In this document: one piece after another, positions 448-35,783 of the stretch
How the letters are laid out: every line of letters starts with the position of its first letter
How positions within the stretch are numbered: the stretch's first letter is position 1
Assembly: GCA_964507595.1 (NCBI GenBank)
Contig: CAZDPO010000001.1
Span: 1-44,144 of the forward strand
Source: Candidatus Woesearchaeota archaeon
Lineage (GTDB): Archaea; Nanobdellota; Nanobdellia; Pacearchaeales; GW2011-AR1
Length of the DNA: 44,144 bases
Reading direction: 5' to 3'
Notes under the pieces: generated by a model
Seen by the model: the letters and a program-made list of their open reading frames with translations, nothing else
Told to the model about the DNA's origin: nothing
The model's database searches: none
Position numbers and translations under genes: made by a program

Positions 448-2832
448 CTACTCAATCCTAAATCTTAAAATAGCTCCAATTCCAGATAAATTCTTAAATT
501 GTTCACCCTCTTCTGTTTCAAGAGAAACTAATTCAATTGTAGAACCAATATTTATAGCCATTGTTTTTAATTCTTTCATAACTGCCTTATCTGTATCTTT
601 TGATAAAATCAATAAATCAACAGCTCCTCTTCCTAAAGCTTTTTTTACATTTTCTAATCTATAAGGTGCTAATTCAGGTGTTTTTCCGAGAGTATTAAAA
701 AACTTTTCTAATAATTGTTTTTCTGCAATTATTTCTTGACCTGCTAAAAGATCTTGAGCTTTATCCACAAGTTCATGTAAACCAGATTCATCTGTATCTC
801 CAATATCTACTCTCCCTAAAACTTTTTTTCTCAATGGAGTTGCCAAATATTCATTATCTAAAAATTCATCTTTTGTTGGAACAGGTCCGCCAACAAGAAT
901 TGCTTTAAGTTTTACTTCTTCATAAAAAGCTTTTTTCATTTCTTCTGCAATTCTTTTATAGAATTCCTTTGTCAAACCTTCTGTAATTCTATGGAAACGT
1001 TGACTTGAATTATGAACAATTAAACCATTTGCAATAAAATTATGATTTTTCGTTTCTATATCGATAGTGTTTACTAAACCTATTTCTTGTTTTTTTAAAA
1101 TTTTTACTGCAATTAAATTAGAATTATAAAAAAATGTTAATCTTTTTATTAAATCTTGTTCCTTAAGTTTATCTAAAATCTTCTTCCTAAATAATTCCTT
1201 ACTTAGTTGCCTTTTATTGACAAAAAATAATGGACAACCAAACTTCCTCAAAGAATAACCAGAATTTTTCAATATTTTAGCAACTTCTCTTCCATTAACT
1301 ACCAATTGTCTAACCTTATTCTTAGTACTTCTAGATTTTATTAAATTTACAACTTTTTCTTGTTTTTCTATTAAAGAAAATCCTAAATTATCTCTAAATC
1401 TTTTCAAAGATTCCAAATCATCTATTGCCAAAGTATACCTTATATTGTTTGAGTATGGGTTTTTCTCATTATCATATTTGCTAACAGAAGAAACAATTCC
1501 TAATCTCAGCAGGGCAAACTGTAACTGCCTAGATAAAATTTCATTATTTATTCCTAACGCAACCCTTCCTTTTGAAACATAACCTTCTGCATCAAAAAAA
1601 CCTGCAATAAAACTTGCTAAAGATTCATTAGAAGATCTTAAAACAATTGACGGCATTCTTTCATCCAAAGTTTTATTTTTTTCAGAAAATATCTTTAAAA
1701 AGAATTGTGAAATAATTCTACTATAAACCCTCAACTGCCAATAATTTTTAGATTCTCGAAATCTTAAATCAGAATCAATCCCAAAAACCTCTTTAATTAA
1801 ATTTTGATAAAATAATAAAAATTCTTTTTTATAGTCAAAAAAAGTTATTCTATCAAGTTCATAACTCCCATCTCCAAGATAATATCCTAATATTCTAGAA
1901 AAAGAAGGATTAACTTTCTCAGGCAAATTAACCTTTTTCATATTAAAATGTTGTTTTATTTCTGGTGTAAACTCTAAAGGTTGATCTTGTAATTCTAAAT
2001 CTATTTTTTCTGGCATTATTAAATAATCCCCTTCATTAATCTCTTTTAAGGTCTTTTCTTCAATCCCTTTTTCAGTTCTAACAAAAAAAGTATGATCTTC
2101 TGATGCTTTTATCTCAAACTTAGGATAACAAGTAATAACCTCAAAAAGCTTCTTTTTATTTTCCCATTTAGCAATTACTGGAGTTTTTTCAGAAATCTCT
2201 GAATTAAAATTTTCAGACATAACAAACAAAGGATTATGAGAATCTTTTATTTCAATAATTTCCCCATTATCTTTCATTATTAAAGTATCTGGACTTAAAC
2301 ATTGTCCTCCAGCTCTTACTTTTGAAGGTATTCCAGAACTCATCTTTTGAATAACTTCAATTCTTTTACCAACTAATTTTCCAACAGTAGCTTCTTTTCT
2401 ATCCATAACTAATAAACCATATATTTCATCAACATCAGCCATTTCTTCTAAAGGTTCTAAAACAAATTCTTTATCACACCTATATAATCTAACACAAACA
2501 GGTTCTGGAGGTTCAATACTCCATAATCTTAAATCATCTTGACCTTCAACTTGAGATATATTTCCTGAAAAAATAGCCAAACCATTTTCAGGTGTTTTTT
2601 TAAATTCTTTAAGATGTCTAACTATCTTCTCTAAAGCTTCTGTAACATTTTTACGAGTAGAAGTTGATTTAATATTTTTAGCAGTTGACTTTTCCCCTTC
2701 AAGTTGTCTTTGAACAGCATTTACATCATATCCTGCTGGAACATAAACAGTAATTAATTCTGTCTGTCTTCCTTTATAGATTTTAAGTTCTGCAATTACT
2801 TCTTCGAGTTCATTTTTATCTATTATTGGCAT
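448..2832 (-). CDS. prf1: peptide chain release factor aRF1, interrupted by an intein (794 aa precursor, about 363 aa after splicing)
   Basis: The N-terminal domain carries NIKS ([10 protein letters not shown]). The middle domain has ...SKVRAGGQ, then the intein, then [10 protein letters not shown], which rebuilds the GGQSxxRF motif. The C-terminal domain is typical of aRF1/eRF1. A TATA-like TTTTATAAA lies 21 nt upstream of the ATG. Confidence 0.9.
1009..2301 (-). mobile_element. intein with LAGLIDADG homing-endonuclease domain inside aRF1 (431 aa)
   Basis: It starts with Cys ([11 protein letters not shown]) and ends with VHN followed by Ser (IVHN/SSQRF). A block-B-like SEDHTFF is present, along with two LAGLIDADG motifs ([22 protein letters not shown]). 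Confidence 0.85.
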
Positions 2833-2916: not shown

Positions 2917-3483
2917 CTAACAAGCAAATAATCCTGCACCTGAATGTGAAACCCCTTCAAAAGGTTTAGTTCTCTTAATCTTACCTATATTTATTCTTCC
3001 ATTATCTAAAGATATCTTTTTTGAGAAAATATTTTTAAATTTTCCCAAATCTCTTAAAATATCTTTTTCAGAAAGATTAACCAAATAAGAAGTTTCAACC
3101 TCATTGAGAGATCTCTCTTCTAACCCTTTATGGAAATGATTATAAAAATCTTCAATATTATTGCTTAACCACGTATTAAATTGAGTTCCAAAACTTTTAT
3201 TAATATACTGAAGAACACTAAAACATTTATAATCCAAATCACTTTCATATGTTCTACCAGCATTTATTCGTTTGCAGGATTCGGCAAGTGAATTTTCCCT
3301 CAACACGGGTCTTGAAAATCTACAATTTTCATAAACTCTTTCAGCCAATTCCTGATCGTGCTCTAAAATCTTTCTTTCTTCTTCTACAAAATTTTGTGCG
3401 CTTTTTTGATTTACATAAGATTGTCTAACTAAATCTCTTTTCGCTTCCACATATTTTTCAAAGGCTTCTTGTGTATTTGTCAT
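2917..3483 (-). CDS. hypothetical protein (188 aa), C-terminus ...SHSGAGLFAC
   Basis: ORF with GGAGAAAAATAAGATG upstream. A perfect palindrome lies upstream at 3517..3535. No known domain recognised. Confidence 0.5.
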   Translation of the reverse strand: MTNTQEAFEKYVEAKRDLVRQSYVNQKSAQNFVEEERKILEHDQELAERVYENCRFSRPVLRENSLAESCKRINAGRTYESDLDYKCFSVLQYINKSFGTQFNTWLSNNIEDFYNHFHKGLEERSLNEVETSYLVNLSEKDILRDLGKFKNIFSKKISLDNGRINIGKIKRTKPFEGVSHSGAGLFAC

Positions 3484-3516
3484 CTTATTTTTCTCCTTGA
3501 TTTAATTTATAAAAAC

Positions 3517-3535
3517 AGAACTTGAAGCAAGTTCT
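3517..3535. promoter_or_regulatory. perfect inverted repeat AGAACTTG-AAG-CAAGTTCT next to an AT-rich TATA-like stretch, upstream of 2917..3483
   Basis: Arms of 8 bp and a 3-nt centre, read directly. On the minus strand it is followed by GTTTTTATAAATTAAAT, then GGAGAAAAA, then ATG. Confidence 0.5.
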
Positions 3536-3641
3536 TTTTTGTTCTCATATAGTAGTAACATATTAAGTTTATATAAAAGATTTTATAGATTTTTACTCCA
3601 AAACGCAACATTTATATAATATTATTGTATTTTATTGTAAA

Positions 3642-4580
3642 ATGTTAGATTTAAAAGATAAAAAGATTTTATATCATCTGGATTTAAATTCTAGAAAACC
3701 AATAAATCAAATAGCAAAAAATATTGGACTTAGTAAAGACCTTACAAATTATAGATTAAAGAAATTAGAAAAAGAAGAATATGTCTTAGGATATCAAACA
3801 ATTATTGATTTTAAAAAATTAGGATATTTGACTATCAGAACAAGAATAACATTAATAGACACAACTCCTCAAAAAGAAAAAGAAATTATTGATTTTTTAA
3901 TTAAACAAAAGAAAGTATTCTTTATATTGGAATTAGAAGGAACAGAATTAACTTTTGGATTAATGGTAAAAGAAATAGAAGAACTCCATGAATTCTACAA
4001 GGAATTTGAAACAAAATTCAAAAAGTTTCTTTCTGAAAAGAAATTTGCAATATATTCTAATTTATATCATTTTAATAGAAATTATCTAGGAAATTTTAAA
4101 GAAAAAAACACCCTCAAATTAGGATTTTCAAAAAAAGAAAAAGTAGACGAATTAGATCTAAAAATATTAAAAATACTATCTAAAAATGCAAGAACTCCCA
4201 CCATAGAAATTGCTATTAGTTTAAAAGTTCCTGCAACAACAGTTGCACATAGAATTAAACAATTAGAAAATAAAAAAATAATTGTTGGATATAGTATCTT
4301 ATTTAATTTTTATAAATGGAATTATAATTATTTTAAGGTAAATTTAGAATTAAAAGAAATCTCAAACATTCAAAAAATAATAGATTATTGTGAATCAAAT
4401 AAAAATATAATATATGCTATGCAAACTTTGGGGGGAAATGATTTAGAAATATACTTTGAATCAGCACAAGAGGATCTAATAAAAACAATGAATGAATTAA
4501 GAACACTATTTCCAGAAATTAGAAAATGGAATTATGATATTTTAAAAAAATACCATAAATTTAATTACCTTATAGATTAA
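3642..4580 (+). CDS. tandem-duplicated Lrp/AsnC-family transcriptional regulator (312 aa, two HTH plus ligand-domain modules)
   Basis: Two repeats of the AsnC-type HTH signature: LDLKDKKILYHLDLNSRKPINQIAKNIGLSKDLTNYRLKKLEKEEYV and LDLKILKILSKNARTPTIEIAISLKVPATTVAHRIKQLENKKIIVGY. TATA TTTATATA sits about 25 nt upstream. Confidence 0.75.
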   Translation: MLDLKDKKILYHLDLNSRKPINQIAKNIGLSKDLTNYRLKKLEKEEYVLGYQTIIDFKKLGYLTIRTRITLIDTTPQKEKEIIDFLIKQKKVFFILELEGTELTFGLMVKEIEELHEFYKEFETKFKKFLSEKKFAIYSNLYHFNRNYLGNFKEKNTLKLGFSKKEKVDELDLKILKILSKNARTPTIEIAISLKVPATTVAHRIKQLENKKIIVGYSILFNFYKWNYNYFKVNLELKEISNIQKIIDYCESNKNIIYAMQTLGGNDLEIYFESAQEDLIKTMNELRTLFPEIRKWNYDILKKYHKFNYLID

Positions 4581-9912: not shown

Positions 9913-10263
9913 TTAACCAACTCTACTTCCAACTTCAATATCAGATTCAGGTATAATTAAAATAACTTTTTCATGATCTGAAGTTGACGCTGCTAAAAGC
10001 ATTCCTTGAGATTCAATTCCCTTCATTTTTCTTGGACTTAAATTAGAAAAATAAATTATTTTCTTTCCAATTAAATCTTCTTTAGAATAATATGGTTTTA
10101 ATCCAGCACAAATTGTTCTCTCACCTATTTCCTCCCCAACATCTAATTCAATTTTGTAAAGTTTATCGGCACCTTCAATTTCTTCAACAGTTTTTATTTG
10201 TGCAACTCTTAAATCTAATTTACTCCAATCTTCAAAATTAACTTGTGCTATTCCTTCTACCAT
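9913..10263 (-). CDS. stand-alone tRNA-binding domain protein (Trbp111/EMAP-like; corresponds to the MetRS C-terminal domain)
   Basis: FEDWSKLDLRVAQIKTVEEIEGADKLYKIELDVGEE..RTICAGLKPYY...LIGKKIIYFSNLSPRKMKGIESQGMLLAA. Its ATG lies 1 nt after the metG stop (TAA A ATG). Confidence 0.8.
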   Translation of the reverse strand: MVEGIAQVNFEDWSKLDLRVAQIKTVEEIEGADKLYKIELDVGEEIGERTICAGLKPYYSKEDLIGKKIIYFSNLSPRKMKGIESQGMLLAASTSDHEKVILIIPESDIEVGSRVG

Positions 10264-10264
10264 T

Positions 10265-11722
10265 TTATATTTTCTTAAATAAAATATCTCCTTTAATTAT
10301 TTTATTATTCTCTAAAAGCTGTTTTTTAACATTATCAAATTCAATTTTAAATCCAAATTGTTTAGCAATTTTCTCAGATGTTTCAGGCATAAAAGGCCAA
10401 AGCAAAATTACAATTGCTTTAATAGAATCTGCAACTTCATAAAGAATAAATTTATCTTTAGTTTCCCATGGCTTTTTATTCTGAACATATTCATTACAAA
10501 CATCAATAAATGCAAATATTTCATTCAAAGCTTTATCTAATTCATAATTTTCAATTAATTTTTCAATTTCTTTTAATTTTAATTTCTTCAAAAGTTTATT
10601 TTCACATTTTTCAACACCATTTTTTTCAATTAAACTAGAAACCCTACTAACTAAATTTCCAAGTTTATTTGCAAGTTCATTATTATGTCTATCAATCAAA
10701 GCTTTTTCAGAAAAATCACCATCATCTCCAAAAGGAGTTGCACGACATAAAGAATATCTTATACTATCTGCAGGGTATTTCTTTAAAAGTTCAAGAGGAG
10801 CAACAACATTTCCTGTTGATTTAGACATTTTTTTACCATCTACTGTCAAAAAGCCGTGCACGATAACCTCTTTAGGTAAAGCCAATCCTGCAGATAATAA
10901 CATTCCAGGCCAAATACCTATATGAAATCTTAACATATCTTTTCCAACAACATGCAAGTCTGCAGGCCAAAATTTTTCATACCTTTTATTTGGATATCCT
11001 ACACCAGTTAAATAATTTGTAAGAGCATCACACCAAACATACATTACTTGAGTTTTATCTCCAGGAACAGGAATTCCCCACGGAAGAACTTCCTTATTTC
11101 TAGAAAAACTAACATCTGTTAAACCCTCTTTAATTAAACTTAAAAAATCATTTTTCCATTTCTTAGGATGAATTTTTAATTTATCTGCTTTAATTAATTC
11201 AGTTATTTTTTTTGAATACTTGCTTAATTTAAAAAAATAATTTTCTTCTTCTATTTTTTGAATTTCTAATTTTGGATGATCAGGACATTTGCCTCCAACC
11301 AAATCTTTTTCTGTTACAAATCTTTCACAACCAGAACAGTAAAATCCCAAATATTTTTTCTTATAAATATCTCCACTTTTTTCTAATAATTTCCACATCT
11401 GAACAACACCTGGCCAATGATTTTTTTGATCCGTGGTTCTAATAAAATAATTTTGGGAGATATTCAATTCTTTTGCTAGTGCTTCAAATAAATCTGAATT
11501 TTTATCTACAAAATCTTGTGGAGAAAGCCCTTGTCTTTTTGCTGTTTGATAATTTTTAACTCCATGCTCATCTGTTCCTGTTAAAAAGAAAACATCTTTT
11601 CCAAGAAGACGGTTCCACCTAGCCAAAATATCTGCTTCTACAAGTTCCAAAGCAAATCCAATATGAGGAGGGGCATTTGCATAGGGAATTGTTGTTGTAA
11701 TATAAAATGTTTTCTTTGCCAT
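10265..11722 (-). CDS. metG: methionyl-tRNA synthetase, core enzyme without the C-terminal tRNA-binding domain
   Basis: HIGH-type motif (PYANAPPHIGFALE), KMSKS (KMSKSTGNVV) and a zinc knuckle (CSGCERF...GKCPDHP). It ends ...ILFKKI, the usual end of the anticodon-binding domain. Confidence 0.9.
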   Translation of the reverse strand: MAKKTFYITTTIPYANAPPHIGFALELVEADILARWNRLLGKDVFFLTGTDEHGVKNYQTAKRQGLSPQDFVDKNSDLFEALAKELNISQNYFIRTTDQKNHWPGVVQMWKLLEKSGDIYKKKYLGFYCSGCERFVTEKDLVGGKCPDHPKLEIQKIEEENYFFKLSKYSKKITELIKADKLKIHPKKWKNDFLSLIKEGLTDVSFSRNKEVLPWGIPVPGDKTQVMYVWCDALTNYLTGVGYPNKRYEKFWPADLHVVGKDMLRFHIGIWPGMLLSAGLALPKEVIVHGFLTVDGKKMSKSTGNVVAPLELLKKYPADSIRYSLCRATPFGDDGDFSEKALIDRHNNELANKLGNLVSRVSSLIEKNGVEKCENKLLKKLKLKEIEKLIENYELDKALNEIFAFIDVCNEYVQNKKPWETKDKFILYEVADSIKAIVILLWPFMPETSEKIAKQFGFKIEFDNVKKQLLENNKIIKGDILFKKI

Positions 11723-15003: not shown

Positions 15004-15132
15004 GATCCTGTAGCTCAGTCTGGTTAGAGTACCGCTCTGATAAATTCGATGTTCGGTTGAATGTCTAATTCCCTCCATCTATGGTGGGTTTCAGAAAGGC
15101 GGGGGTCCTCGGTTCGAATCCGAGCAGGATCA
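15004..15132 (+). tRNA. tRNA-Ile (anticodon GAU) with a roughly 54-nt intron at the canonical 37/38 position (about 15043..15096)
   Basis: Manual cloverleaf: acceptor GATCCTG/CAGGATC, D arm GCTC/GAGT, anticodon stem CCGCT/GGCGG, loop CTGATA|intron|A, T arm CTCGG-TTCGAAT-CCGAG, discriminator A. No encoded CCA. Confidence 0.85.
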
Positions 15133-25645: not shown

Positions 25646-28600
25646 ATGGAAGAAGAGGATGTTCCGCAAAGAGAAGAAGCTCTAAATCAACAATCATCTA
25701 AACAAGAAGAACTTTTAATAGAAGCAAAAGGATTTATTGATTATTATAAAAAAGAAATAGGAGAATCTCTAAAATCTGGAAACAATGTTGTTTTTATTGA
25801 TTTTATGGCATTATCTGAATTCTCAAACAATTTAGCAGATGAAATATTAGCAAATCCAGAAGAAGCACTTAGATTAGTTGAATTAGCAATTGAAGAAAGT
25901 GGAAGAGGAGCAAATATAAGAGTTAGATTAAGAGACATGTCTGATAGTCAAGATGTAAAAATAAGAAACATAAGATCAAAACATTTAAACGAACTTATTG
26001 TTGTTGAAGGAATTATCAGGCAAGCTTCAGATGTAAGACCTCAAGTTGTAAATGCTAAATTTGAATGTCCTTCATGTGGAACAATTATATCTGTTCTTCA
26101 AATTGAAAAAAAATTCAGAGAACCCACAAGATGTTCTTGCGGAAGAAGAGGAGGATTTAAACTAATATCAAAAGAAATGGTTGATACTCAAAGATTAATT
26201 GTTGAAGAAGCACCAGACAATTTAACTGGAGGAGAACAACCAAAAAGAATTAATGTTTTTGTAAAAGAAGACCTAGTTGAACCAAAAATGGAAGAAAAAA
26301 CAACACCAGGTGCAAGGGTAAAAGTTATTGGTATTTTAAAAGAAGTTCCTGTTCCATTATCTACAGGGGGATTATCAACAAGATTTGAATTAGCAGTTGA
26401 AGTAAATAATTTAATTCCTTTAGAAGAAACATTTGAAGAATTAAATATATCTGAAGAAGATGAAAGGCAAATTTTAGAATTATCTCAAGATCCAAAAGTA
26501 TTTGAAAAATTAACAGAAAGTATTGCTCCAAGTGTTTGGGGATATAATGAAATCAAAGAATCTTTAGTTCTACAATTATTTGGAGGTGTTCAAAAAAAGA
26601 GAACAGATGGACAAAAGACAAGAGGAGATATTCATATTATGCTTATTGGAGATCCAGGTGTGGCCAAAAGTGTAATGTTATTATTTATGGCAAATATATC
26701 TCCAAAAGGAAGATATGTTGTTGGAAAATCTGCCTCAGGTGCAGGATTAACAGCTTCTGTGGTTAGAGATGAATATCTTAAAGGGTGGAGTTTAGAGGCA
26801 GGAGCTTTGGTTCTTTCAAATAAAGGTTTAGTTGCAATAGATGAATTAGAAAAAATGGATCCAACAGAAAGAAGTGCAATGCACGAAGCAATGGAACAGC
26901 AATGCATGTTACCTAATTTTAAATTAATGCTATCTAATGGTAAAAGTGTAGAAATTGGGAAATTTATAGATAATTTAATGGAAGAAAATAAGGAAAAAAT
27001 ATATAATGGGAAAGATTGCCAAATTTTATCAACAAGCCATATAGAACTCTTATCAACAGATTTTAGTAATCATTTTCCAATAAAAGCATCAAGAATTAGC
27101 AGGCATATTGCTCCAAATCAATTCATAAAAATAGAATTAAGTAATGGAAAAGAAATAACTGTAACTCCCGAACATCCTTGTTGGATAACTAATCAAGGTA
27201 AAATTACCACAACTTCTGCTGAAAATTTAAAAAAAGGTATGTATTTTCCAATTCCTTCAAAAATTAATATAATTGAAAGAAAATATAAAAAAGAAAATAA
27301 AGAGTTATGTAAATTAATAGGATATCATATTAGTGATGGATGTTACGAATTAAATAGAGGGAAGAAAACTGGGATTCAGTTTTGGAACAATGATAAAACT
27401 CTAATTGAAGACTATAAAAATTGTATAGAGATATTATTTAAAAAAACACCAACAATTACTAAAAGAAAACATCAATTTGCAGTAAGAGTTATTTCAAAGA
27501 AAATCTTAGAAGAACTTAATAAAATTGATAAAAATCTATTGGAAAAAGGAGATAAAAAAGGAATTCCAGAAAAAATAATGCAACTTCCAAAAAAAAATAT
27601 AAAATATCTATTGAAGGCGTTGTATGATGGAGATGGTTCTGTAATATCTCAAAAAAGAGGAGGGTGCAGAATCTCCTTTGTATCTCAAAACAGAGAATTA
27701 GAAGAACAAATGTCTGATTTATTATTAAGATTTGGAATACAATCTTCAATATTCAAAGACAATCATTCAAATGTTTTTAGACTCGATATTTCAGGGCAAG
27801 AAAATTTAGGGAAATTTTTAATAAATATTAATTTTTTATCAAAACACAAAAAAGAAAAATTGCAAGCATATTGTGAAAAAGATAAAACATATAAAACAAT
27901 AAAAGATATTATCCCAGGTTGTACAGATAAAATAAGTGAAATCTTTAAGAAATTAAATATCTCTATGAATAAAACCCTTGGTCATTCTATAGATTTGAAT
28001 GTTGAAAAACAAAGAATTTTTCTCCAAAAATTAGTTTTAATTGCAGAAAAAAAATTAAAACAAAAACCAGATTATAATTTGAAAAAATATTCAGAAATAG
28101 AAAAAGAACTTTTAAGAATTAAAAAATTAGCATTTGGTTATGCAAGATGGATGAAAATAAAAAAGGTAACTAAAATCAAAAACAAAGATATAAAATGGGT
28201 TTATGATGTTACCATAGAACCTTACCATACATTTATCTCAAATGGAATGATCTTGCATAATACAGTGACCATTTCAAAAGCAAATATTCAGGCTAGTTTA
28301 AAGGCCCAAACATCTATCCTTGCAGCTGCAAACCCCAAATTTGGGAGATTTGATCCAACACAAGGTATACCTCAACAAATAGATTTGCCTCCAACATTGA
28401 TAAATAGATTTGATGTTATATTTGCTCTAAGAGATTTGCCAAATAAAATAAACGATGAAAAAGTTGCAACACACATTTTAACAGAACATCAAAAAGCAGC
28501 AAAAGAGATGCTCATTGATAAAGATTTATTTAGAAAATATATTGCATATTCAAAACAAAGATTTAATCCAAAATTAACAAATGAAGCTGTTGAAAAAATA

Positions 28601-29059
28601 AAACAATTTTATGTTAATCTAAGAAACAAACCTATGCAAGATAGAAGTGAAATGAGATCAATCCCAATTTCTGCAAGGCAACTAGGTTCTCTAATAAGAA
28701 TGGCTGAGGCTTCTGCTAAATTAAGATTAAGTGAAAAAGTAGAAGGAAAAGATGCAGAAATAGCAATACGAATAATAAAATATTATCTAGAACATACTGG
28801 TTATGATGAAGAAACAGGTCAAATAGATATGGATAAAATAACTGGGAGAATGAAATCTTCTCAAAGAAATAAAATTTTCAAAGTAAGAGATATTATATTT
28901 GAATTAAGAGAAACATTAGGAGAACAGATTCCTATTGAAGAAATTGAAAAAAAGCTAGAAGGCGAGATGAATTCAGGTGAAATAGACGATGCAATTGATA
29001 AATTAGCTAAAGAAGGTGCAATATTCAAACCCAGAAGAGGATATGTGCAGAAAGTGTAA
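25646..29059 (+). CDS. mcm: MCM replicative helicase interrupted by an intein (1137 aa precursor, about 684 aa spliced)
   Basis: N-terminal OB/zinc motif (CPSCG...CSCG), Walker A (IHIMLIGDPGVAKS), Walker B (VAIDELEKM), EAMEQQ|intein|TVTISKANI, arginine finger region (LINRFDVIF) and a C-terminal wH. Confidence 0.93.
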   Translation: MEEEDVPQREEALNQQSSKQEELLIEAKGFIDYYKKEIGESLKSGNNVVFIDFMALSEFSNNLADEILANPEEALRLVELAIEESGRGANIRVRLRDMSDSQDVKIRNIRSKHLNELIVVEGIIRQASDVRPQVVNAKFECPSCGTIISVLQIEKKFREPTRCSCGRRGGFKLISKEMVDTQRLIVEEAPDNLTGGEQPKRINVFVKEDLVEPKMEEKTTPGARVKVIGILKEVPVPLSTGGLSTRFELAVEVNNLIPLEETFEELNISEEDERQILELSQDPKVFEKLTESIAPSVWGYNEIKESLVLQLFGGVQKKRTDGQKTRGDIHIMLIGDPGVAKSVMLLFMANISPKGRYVVGKSASGAGLTASVVRDEYLKGWSLEAGALVLSNKGLVAIDELEKMDPTERSAMHEAMEQQCMLPNFKLMLSNGKSVEIGKFIDNLMEENKEKIYNGKDCQILSTSHIELLSTDFSNHFPIKASRISRHIAPNQFIKIELSNGKEITVTPEHPCWITNQGKITTTSAENLKKGMYFPIPSKINIIERKYKKENKELCKLIGYHISDGCYELNRGKKTGIQFWNNDKTLIEDYKNCIEILFKKTPTITKRKHQFAVRVISKKILEELNKIDKNLLEKGDKKGIPEKIMQLPKKNIKYLLKALYDGDGSVISQKRGGCRISFVSQNRELEEQMSDLLLRFGIQSSIFKDNHSNVFRLDISGQENLGKFLININFLSKHKKEKLQAYCEKDKTYKTIKDIIPGCTDKISEIFKKLNISMNKTLGHSIDLNVEKQRIFLQKLVLIAEKKLKQKPDYNLKKYSEIEKELLRIKKLAFGYARWMKIKKVTKIKNKDIKWVYDVTIEPYHTFISNGMILHNTVTISKANIQASLKAQTSILAAANPKFGRFDPTQGIPQQIDLPPTLINRFDVIFALRDLPNKINDEKVATHILTEHQKAAKEMLIDKDLFRKYIAYSKQRFNPKLTNEAVEKIKQFYVNLRNKPMQDRSEMRSIPISARQLGSLIRMAEASAKLRLSEKVEGKDAEIAIRIIKYYLEHTGYDEETGQIDMDKITGRMKSSQRNKIFKVRDIIFELRETLGEQIPIEEIEKKLEGEMNSGEIDDAIDKLAKEGAIFKPRRGYVQKV
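26903..28261 (+). mobile_element. intein with LAGLIDADG homing-endonuclease domain inside MCM (453 aa)
   Basis: It starts with Cys (EQQ/CMLPNF) and ends with LHN followed by Thr (ILHN/TVTISK). Block B is TVTPEHP. LAGLIDADG motifs are LIGYHISDGCY and LLKALYDGDGSV. Confidence 0.88.
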
Positions 29060-34957: not shown

Positions 34958-35734
34958 ATGTATATTAAGATAAAAGATAACCAAGAGAAAATTATTAAAA
35001 AAGCTAGAATAAAAGCAGGAGGTTATAGGAAACTAGAAAAAATAACAAGAATACCTAAGGCTTCAATATACAATTATGAAAAATTGGAAGCAATGCCAGA
35101 AAATAGATTTAAAATAATAATTAATTTTTTAAAAATAAAAATAAAGAAAGAAAATTTAGAATTCTTTGAAAATAATTGGAGACAAAAAAAAGGAGGAATA
35201 AATTGTGTAAAATCAAAAAAGAAAAAAGGAGTTTTCGAAAGAGATTTAAAAAAAGCTCAAAAGAAAGGAATACAAAAGATAAAAGAATGGCACAAAAAGA
35301 TGAAAAAAGAAAAACCTAAAGAATACTATTTAATTCAATATGGAAAATTTAAAAAAATTTGCGGTTACAAATATAAAACAAAAAAAGGAGAAAAAGTAAG
35401 AAATAAATTTGAAGAAGAAGTTGCAAACAAATTATACAAAATGAAACTATCTTATGAATATGAACCCCTAGTTAAAATTGGTAAAAAATGGTTTTTTCCA
35501 GATTTTTTAATAGATAATAAAATAATTATAGAGGCTACAGCCTGGGAAGGTAAAGAAAAAGCCTATCTTTTAAGAAAAAAGATGAAACATTTAAACAAGA
35601 AGTATAAGGTATTTGTAATTATCCCAAAACATTTATATAGTAAATATAAGATTTTAAAGAATAGCTTAATAGTGGGGATAGATAATTTAGACCTCGTAGC
35701 TCAGTGGTTAGAGCGGACGGCTGTTAGGATTTAA
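34958..35734 (+). CDS. HTH-containing protein with a C-terminal PD-(D/E)xK-like (DUF559/Vsr-like) nuclease motif; its 3' end overlaps tRNA-Asn
   Basis: N-terminal HTH-like RKLEKITRIPKASIYNYEK. C-terminal EEEVANKLYKMKLSYEYEPLV...FFPDFLIDNKIIIEATAWEG. The last 15 codons are the tRNA 5' exon and the stop lies in the tRNA intron. Confidence 0.5.
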   Translation: MYIKIKDNQEKIIKKARIKAGGYRKLEKITRIPKASIYNYEKLEAMPENRFKIIINFLKIKIKKENLEFFENNWRQKKGGINCVKSKKKKGVFERDLKKAQKKGIQKIKEWHKKMKKEKPKEYYLIQYGKFKKICGYKYKTKKGEKVRNKFEEEVANKLYKMKLSYEYEPLVKIGKKWFFPDFLIDNKIIIEATAWEGKEKAYLLRKKMKHLNKKYKVFVIIPKHLYSKYKILKNSLIVGIDNLDLVAQWLERTAVRI

Positions 35735-35783
35735 TCAAATCACAGTGACCGTCAGGTCGTAGGTTCAAGTCCTACCGGGGTCG
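35690..35783 (+). tRNA. tRNA-Asn (anticodon GUU) with a 21-nt intron (35727..35747) in a canonical bulge-helix-bulge motif
   Basis: Acceptor GACCTCG/CGGGGTC, D arm GCTC/GAGC, anticodon stem GACGG/CCGTC, loop CTGTTA|intron|A, T arm GTAGG-TTCAAGT-CCTAC. BHB layout: CTGT[TAG]GATTT-AATC-AAATC ACAG[TGA]. Confidence 0.9.

Follow-up and report, generated by a model that had tools for sequence, protein, structure and literature searches.

How a release factor can work when its catalytic loop is interrupted by 431 amino acids (aa) is the question raised by a gene in a 44,144 nt stretch of DNA from a Candidatus Woesearchaeota archaeon (assembly GCA_964507595.1, contig CAZDPO010000001.1, positions 1 to 44,144), here called the window. 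The gene encodes the archaeal class-I release factor aRF1, and a first-pass annotation made from the sequence without database searches had proposed that a full-length LAGLIDADG intein splits its GGQ motif. The reading favoured here, with a probability of roughly 85%, is that this aRF1 is made as an inactive precursor with a class-1 intein in the GGQ loop, and that the intein is a live selfish element maintained by a homing cycle across the DPANN archaea. The precursor gene and its parts are laid out as follows.

448..2832, minus strand: aRF1 precursor gene, 794 codons plus stop (TIGR03676, E 4e-112; Pfam eRF1_1, eRF1_2 and eRF1_3)
About 25–30 nt 5' of the aRF1 ATG: putative TATA-like box, TTTATAAA, a candidate promoter element judging from the upstream sequence
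2302..2832, minus strand: N-extein, aa 1–177, comprising aRF1 domain N and the first part of domain M and ending in GGQ
2665..2676, minus strand: NIKS, aa 53–56, a decoding motif kept in the N-extein
2464..2484, minus strand: YxCxxxF (YRCDKEF, aa 117–123), a decoding motif kept in the N-extein
2302..2310, minus strand: GGQ, aa 175–177, the end of the N-extein
1009..2301, minus strand: class-1 intein, 431 aa, precursor aa 178–608 (Pfam and TIGR models, AlphaFold2 (AF2) model with Foldseek)
2263..2301, minus strand: intein block A, with Cys1 (Cys178, codon 2299..2301)
2080..2121, minus strand: intein block B, KFEIKA-S244-ED-H247, an S-x-x-H version of TxxH
1153..1962, minus strand: homing-endonuclease domain, about aa 291–560 (two LAGLIDADG motifs; ratio of nonsynonymous to synonymous substitution (dN/dS); match to 1dq3; predicted local distance difference test score (pLDDT) 85–95)
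1864..1893, minus strand: LAGLIDADG motif 1, ILGYYLG-D321-GS, with predicted catalytic D321
1576..1611, minus strand: LAGLIDADG motif 2, FIAGFFDA-E416-GYV, with predicted catalytic E416
1009..1071, minus strand: intein blocks F and G, the latter LIV-H607-N608
1006..1008, minus strand: codon of the +1 residue, Ser609, the first residue of the C-extein
451..1008, minus strand: C-extein, aa 609–794, comprising the remainder of domain M and domain C

The open reading frame (ORF) at 448..2832, taken from the ORF list and translated anew, encodes a 794-aa aRF1 precursor. Its junctions read SKVRAGGQ/CLSPDT and NGLIVHN/Ser (a slash between motifs marks a splice boundary here and below), which places the insertion between Gln177 of GGQ and the next Ser. 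The position and length given in the first-pass annotation (1009..2301, 431 aa) are reproduced exactly. Removal of the insert yields a 363-aa aRF1 that scores 401.5 bits against TIGR03676, compared with 374.9 for the precursor (cut-off 234.7). The spliced sequence aligns without gaps across GGQ-S to the solved aRF1 structures of Halobacterium (4af1, GGQSAQRF; ...GKQRKGGQSAQRFARL) and Aeropyrum (3agk, GGQSQRRY; ...GKHKMGGQSQRRYERI), which bears out the earlier claims that the insert directly follows the Gln and that its removal rebuilds the motif. All three eRF1 domains score above the Pfam cut-off in the precursor, and the match to domain 2 is broken into two stretches. The three-domain eRF1 fold with NIKS, YxCxxxF and GGQ, by which aRF1 is recognised (TIGR03676), is present, with a Foldseek match to 4af1.

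Taken alone, the insert matches Pfam Intein_splicing (E 1.8e-16, 60.8 bits, cut-off 35.8) and, in two stretches, LAGLIDADG_3 (E 2.6e-20, 72.9 bits, cut-off 22.5). The model for the intein C-terminal splicing region (TIGR01443) gives 22–23 bits against a cut-off of 15.6, and that for the N-terminal splicing region (TIGR01445) gives 24.4 bits against a cut-off of 24.5. An AF2 model of the full precursor, built from a 62-sequence alignment of homologues (A1), has a mean pLDDT of 81, with the intein at 85–95 and low values confined to the junction-flanking loops (169–175 and 610–616) and to intein residues 202–218. Searched against the PDB with Foldseek, this model matches the TliVMA endonuclease-intein 7qss (E 4.5e-24, target-normalised TM-score 0.74), aRF1 4af1 (E 6e-22) and PI-PfuI 1dq3 (E 4e-19), with further intein matches to PI-TkoII 2cw7 and PI-SceI 1vde. 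A HINT fold is thus indicated both by the Intein_splicing match and by the resemblance of the model to 7qss, 1dq3, 2cw7 and 1vde. PI-PfuI is also the solved protein nearest to the insert when sequences are compared (1dq3, E 1.7e-15). Like the aRF1 intein, PI-PfuI (the ribonucleotide reductase (RNR) intein of Pyrococcus furiosus) and the TliVMA and PhoVMA inteins (7qss, 7qst) consist of a HINT domain split by a double-motif LAGLIDADG endonuclease. However, they share only ~17–20% sequence identity with it, they occupy other insertion sites in other hosts (ribonucleotide reductase and V-ATPase A), and they have been characterised experimentally, whereas the activities of the aRF1 intein are predicted. 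On every sequence and structure criterion tested, the insert belongs to the class-1 intein and LAGLIDADG families.

When the precursor was searched against 5.8 billion proteins, with matches clustered at the 90% identity level, at least 120 clusters of 748–801 aa were found that have the same domain order and are 60–100% identical to the query. The named clusters among them come from metagenome-assembled genomes (MAGs) of Candidatus Pacearchaeota or Nanoarchaeota. In their alignment GGQ is conserved in 120/120, Cys1 in 119/120, and H607, N608 and the +1 Ser (S609) each in 120/120, and S244 and H247 of block B as well as both LAGLIDADG motifs, including D321 and E416, are invariant in A1. The N-terminal Cys, penultimate His-Asn, +1 Ser and two LAGLIDADG blocks named in the first-pass annotation are therefore both present in the translation and shared with its relatives. 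The sole close homologue without Cys1 is P0099 (793 aa), which has Arg at intein position 1 (GGQ/RLSEDT) and represents either an allele that no longer splices or an error of sequencing. Among the close clusters the intein and the N-extein each have a mean pairwise identity of 0.70, and the C-extein one of 0.63. Nei-Gojobori estimates for the window gene and two relatives (P0002 and P0003) give a dN/dS of 0.09–0.12 for the endonuclease domain, below the 0.14–0.19 of the exteins, which indicates that the release factor and the endonuclease are both under strong purifying selection.

It could be asked whether the interrupted gene works at all. The insert might fail to splice, or the gene might be a pseudogene or an assembly chimera, with another aRF1 elsewhere in the genome doing the work. 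Two observations can be read this way: the scan for a second aRF1 was limited to the window, and P0099 has Arg in place of Cys1. However, an identical precursor protein is present on 11 independent contigs from several different samples and is therefore not an assembly artefact, on which ground the chimera was rejected. The reading frame is intact, the exteins are under purifying selection, the locus is the same as that of an intein-free orthologue, the residues needed for splicing do not vary over hundreds of sequences, and the window holds no other aRF1-like ORF. A dead or artefactual gene is accordingly regarded as extremely improbable.

Evidence on mobility comes from the alleles found at the same site in close relatives. 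When the spliced extein was used in a word-index search, the relatives listed were intein-free or carried a mini-intein; none of the known full-length carriers appeared among them, not even the query protein, so the prevalence of the intein is not readable from this listing. The closest extein relative among the matches listed, P0404, is an intein-free protein of 363 aa with 96% amino acid and 91.4% nucleotide identity. It occupies the same locus as the window aRF1, with a valyl-tRNA synthetase (ValRS) gene upstream and DUF2334 and ScpB genes downstream. Over the 30 nt preceding the insertion point its sequence is the same as that of the window, and the empty-site DNA (L011) reads ATACCTTCAAAAGTAAGAGCTGGAGGACAA/AGTTCACAACGTTTTCATAGAATAACAGAA. 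A second relative, P0405 (93% extein identity at the amino acid level), carries a 138-aa mini-intein at the identical site. Compared with the N-terminal part of the intein in the window, this mini-intein has only ~28% identity, against 40% with the mini-intein of L001. It therefore belongs to a different intein lineage, and its derivation from the window intein by deletion was rejected on the same grounds. A scan of GTDB genomes with exact 8-mers of the precursor, which is not a survey, returned two loci: L002 (Pacearchaeota) has an empty site (GGQSAQRF), and L001 carries the mini-intein, of 139 aa.

Among full-length carriers, the exteins of P0005 and P0011 are 95.8% identical at the nucleotide level while their inteins are 75.8% identical, and identity switches at both splice junctions. 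In P0107 the exteins are ~50% identical to other members and the intein ~73%. Taking all pairs together, the identities of exteins and inteins are correlated only at r=0.43, a value reached by 0/300 permutations in a Mantel test. Empty, 138-aa mini and full alleles thus occur among hosts with 91–96% identical extein DNA, and together with the allele swaps they match the prediction of an active homing cycle. The presence/absence and allele-swap data point to a homing cycle that would still be ongoing. A scan of viral contigs with the intein gave seven matches, all covering only the last 18 residues (the generic blocks F and G), with no sign of a viral vector.

A relic that still splices, is inherited only vertically and has an endonuclease that is no longer active would sit well with the very uniform precursor length (789–801 aa) across the 120 clusters and with the positive correlation of extein and intein identities. 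The low dN/dS of the endonuclease and the invariance of both its catalytic acidic residues speak against such a fixed state, as do the coexistence of the three allele types in near-identical hosts and the sharp, intein-only divergence of P0005 and P0011, and it is considered very unlikely. The homing-cycle model for inteins and homing endonuclease genes is reportedly due to Goddard and Burt and to Gogarten and Hilario. All the states it predicts (empty, full with endonuclease, and endonuclease-less mini) are seen at the aRF1 GGQ site among close relatives. Two features differ from the model: the endonuclease of the aRF1 intein is unusually well conserved over a large clade, and at least two unrelated intein lineages, one full-size and one mini, occupy a single aRF1 site in near-identical hosts.

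The site is occupied well beyond the close relatives. A HMMER scan of 1.84 billion cluster representatives at 50% identity gave 6,234 matches, and among the best 150, which were examined, 88 carry an insert at the exact GGQ site in aRF1 proteins 31–49% identical to the query. Every readable junction among these representatives is of the form C...HN/S. For the 66 with both junctions visible, the insert measures 127–172 aa (17 representatives), 271–319 aa (3) or 408–577 aa (46). Distant full-size inteins are 24–53% identical to the window intein (mean 34%) and their exteins 33–55% identical (mean 41%). On a rough neighbour-joining tree of the exteins, intein-bearing and intein-free aRF1 proteins are interleaved, and sister pairs of full and mini forms recur. 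The NCBI names of carriers include Woesearchaeota, Micrarchaeota, Nanohaloarchaea and Diapherotrites, and Aenigmatarchaeota-like archaea are represented as well, from which it follows that the GGQ-site allele is spread over DPANN. The survey of relatives that was proposed along with the intein has thus found GGQ-site inteins in at least 120 close clusters and in the 88 distant representatives.

Two further variations were seen among these proteins. P0182 (1187 aa) and P0185 (1452 aa) have a second aRF1 intein site directly before the Cys of YxCxxxF (YLYM or YLYR/C...HN/CDDH). Both proteins also carry a GGQ-site intein, to which the inserts at the second site (244 and 510 aa) show no similarity by BLAST. 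For the larger GGQ-site inteins (490–577 aa; P0123/P0273, P0141, P0148 and P0168), source annotations place an XRE-type helix-turn-helix inside the intein, which suggests an added DNA-binding module lacking in the 431-aa window intein.

The conservation and breadth of the family also bear on whether the intein has been domesticated. Conditional splicing, responding to redox state at Cys1, temperature, salt or host contact, could switch all termination on or off, with the endonuclease kept for a host function. The intein, endonuclease included, is conserved at least as well as aRF1 itself. Its site is the catalytic loop, hence the unspliced precursor must be inactive, and the element is widespread and long-lived in DPANN. 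Conditional splicing has reportedly been documented for other archaeal inteins, such as that of RadA in work cited in PMC4760082. On the other hand, near-identical hosts thrive without the intein or with an unrelated, endonuclease-less mini-intein, which speaks against a function that the host could not do without. The endonuclease has also been lost repeatedly and independently, with 17 mini-inteins dispersed over the extein tree, a pattern characteristic of a selfish homing cycle. A regulatory role for the intein is therefore judged unlikely, and the selfish homing element remains the preferred reading.

If the intein behaves as its class predicts, splicing would begin with an N-S acyl shift at Cys1, aided by the S-x-x-H of block B, and continue with trans-esterification onto Ser+1. 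Asn431 (intein numbering) would then cyclise with the aid of the penultimate His, and an O-N shift would join ...AGGQ to SSQRF..., yielding an ordinary release factor of 363 aa. Only after splicing could the loop enter the peptidyl-transferase centre, and only then could the Gln of GGQ receive any N5-methylation. In aRF1 alleles that lack the intein, the endonuclease would cut the highly conserved DNA coding for GGQ, and repair would copy the intein in.

The first-pass annotation had gone further and made all translation termination in the organism depend on splicing. A 431-aa domain in a loop bound for the peptidyl-transferase centre would leave the precursor inactive, and termination would accordingly depend on splicing. 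The syntenic locus (ValRS, aRF1, DUF2334, ScpB in the orthologues), the extein dN/dS and the finding of a single aRF1-like ORF in the window, namely the interrupted gene, all favour this claim, which is well supported, not proven. The ORF scan covered the 44-kb window, and the gene in it is likely the organism's sole copy of aRF1. Several points weigh against the preferred reading. Splicing and DNA cleavage are deduced from sequence for all members of the family. Block B has Ser in place of the usual Thr, which is regarded here as a tolerated variant. A domesticated, host-beneficial function would likewise yield strong purifying selection on the endonuclease. The allele swaps need not reflect homing driven by the endonuclease, as ordinary homologous recombination in the exteins on either side could also produce them, and the scan for a second aRF1 again extends over the window only.

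The residue before the intein is not always Gln. Among 77 intein-bearing representatives with a readable N-terminal junction, 19 have another residue at this position (M in 7, W in 7, F in 4 and S in 1). A profile built from the exteins with GGW, GGM or GGF retrieved 118 further clusters, all intein-free and ~400 aa long, several of them named 'peptide chain release factor aRF-1 [Candidatus Aenigmatarchaeota archaeon]'. Without exception, the 118 clusters have GGW, GGM or GGF (loop motifs GGWSQ in 61, GGWSA in 28, GGMSQ in 24 and others in 5), and NIKS-like and YxCxxxF motifs are kept in 118/118. In P0330 (L008), the single gene checked, W is encoded by TGG. A Gln occurs two residues later in 17/18 cases when the GGQ position is non-Gln, versus 4/48 with GGQ, and 31 clusters lack Gln anywhere in the loop. 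On the rough extein tree, forms without Gln at the GGQ position appear in at least seven places, with and without the intein, and one large clade holds all the sequences named for Aenigmatarchaeota. The sequences concerned are P0125, P0140-P0142, P0145, P0147, P0149, P0151, P0153-P0156, P0175, P0177, P0188, P0195, P0197, P0198, P0216, P0225, P0235, P0244, P0245, P0253, P0259 and P0282-P0399, and the gene in L008 lies at 10001..11218.

Shifted intein boundaries that would rebuild GGQ in proteins of the form GGW, GGM or GGF/C...HN/SQ were considered and rejected, as no known splicing chemistry allows them. They are also ruled out by the length of the loop, which is conserved only with W, M or F at the Gln position, and by the existence of intein-free GGW, GGM and GGF proteins. 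GGxSQ is the catalytic motif of the VLRF1 families of peptidyl-tRNA hydrolases (Burroughs and Aravind, PMC6514570). The loop of the GGW, GGM and GGF aRF1 proteins is likewise usually continued by S-Q, giving GGxSQ, and the 31 clusters without a loop Gln differ in this respect. A literature search found no paper naming GGW together with GGQ and release factor. It is possible, though rather doubtful, that the GGQ loop is an evolutionary hot spot in DPANN where the intein gates maturation, perhaps conditionally, and where its residency next to the catalytic Gln (the -1 residue) permitted or drove remodelling of the motif.

The suggestion that aRF1 was missing from the lists of intein hosts has held up so far. 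A full-text literature search for a natural intein in aRF1, eRF1 or a release factor, with GGQ, DPANN and Pacearchaeota, found nothing relevant. The Novikova 2016 intein census (PMC4760082) leaves release factors unmentioned and describes core translation proteins as ones that 'contain few inteins'. Likewise, searching NCBIfam r20 with the precursor matched no model of an intein-containing aRF1 or eRF1. The precursor did match intein-containing 'exception' models (RtcB, Tes, GyrA and Rv2578c) and an 'equivalog' model (intein-containing RecA). Sequences of the family are abundant in public databases, and automatic IMG annotation labels some homologues 'eRF1/intein/homing endonuclease'. What is new is the host protein and the insertion site, together with a large family, while the kind of element is already known. 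Methanopyrus EF2, an InBase entry, carries an intein, and the window insert gives partial matches to the intein portion of the NCBIfam IF-2 model PRK14845. Archaeal aIF2/IF-2 inteins, as presented in the census (Novikova 2016, PMC4760082), resemble the aRF1 intein in lying within conserved motifs of essential translation proteins. However, the aIF2/IF-2 and EF2 hosts are P-loop GTPases, whereas the host here is a class-I release factor and the site its peptidyl-tRNA hydrolysis loop.

Deposited GenBank and IMG names for intein-bearing aRF1 genes include 'LAGLIDADG family homing endonuclease', 'helix-turn-helix domain-containing protein' and 'hypothetical protein' (P0028, P0055, P0084, P0110, P0148, P0157, P0160, P0168, P0273 and others). 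One such gene sits in a MAG labelled as a Paceibacterota bacterium. With the gene filed under other names, aRF1 can look absent from DPANN genomes, and where it serves as a marker gene, both completeness estimates and phylogenomic alignments can be disturbed.

The window contains a second intein, in an MCM helicase gene, and differs from close relatives in the genes next to aRF1. In three of these relatives (L011, L006 and L007) aRF1 begins 1–2 nt after a ValRS-like gene. In the window, ValRS and aRF1 are separated by other genes (2917..4580), which is a local insertion or rearrangement; L005 likewise has other genes there, with additional ones. The features concerned are the following.

2917..3483, minus strand: ORF of 188 aa without a Pfam match
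3642..4580, plus strand: double helix-turn-helix Lrp/AsnC regulator, between ValRS and aRF1
25646..29059, plus strand: MCM helicase gene, 1137 aa, carrying its own intein
26903..28261, plus strand: MCM intein, 453 aa, full-length LAGLIDADG, with junctions ...HEAMEQQ/CMLPNF...MILHN/TVTISKA
15004..15132, plus strand: Rfam tRNA match, 129 nt
35690..35783, plus strand: Rfam tRNA match, 94 nt

The MCM intein resembles the aRF1 intein in being a full-length LAGLIDADG intein with Cys1 and His-Asn, and it resides in a classical host. It differs in its +1 residue, which is Thr, and the two are only 24% identical. With identity this low, recent copying from the MCM gene was rejected as the origin of the aRF1 intein. 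Both tRNA matches are longer than the 71-position model and probably contain introns; ARAGORN found no tRNA in the window despite these two Rfam matches.

The aRF1 intein adds a translation termination factor to the known intein hosts, at a site that is the most conserved catalytic motif of class-I release factors. Full, mini and empty alleles, with at least two intein lineages competing for one site, make the family a good system for following the homing cycle in uncultivated DPANN archaea. It may also serve biotechnology as a source of new predicted LAGLIDADG endonucleases and of Cys1/Ser+1 mini-inteins of 127–172 aa. Should the GGW, GGM and GGF proteins prove to be the only release factors of their organisms, a catalytic Gln would not be universal among class-I release factors, which would bear on the mechanism of peptidyl-tRNA hydrolysis. 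In the organisms that carry the intein, every stop codon would be read by a protein that had first spliced itself.

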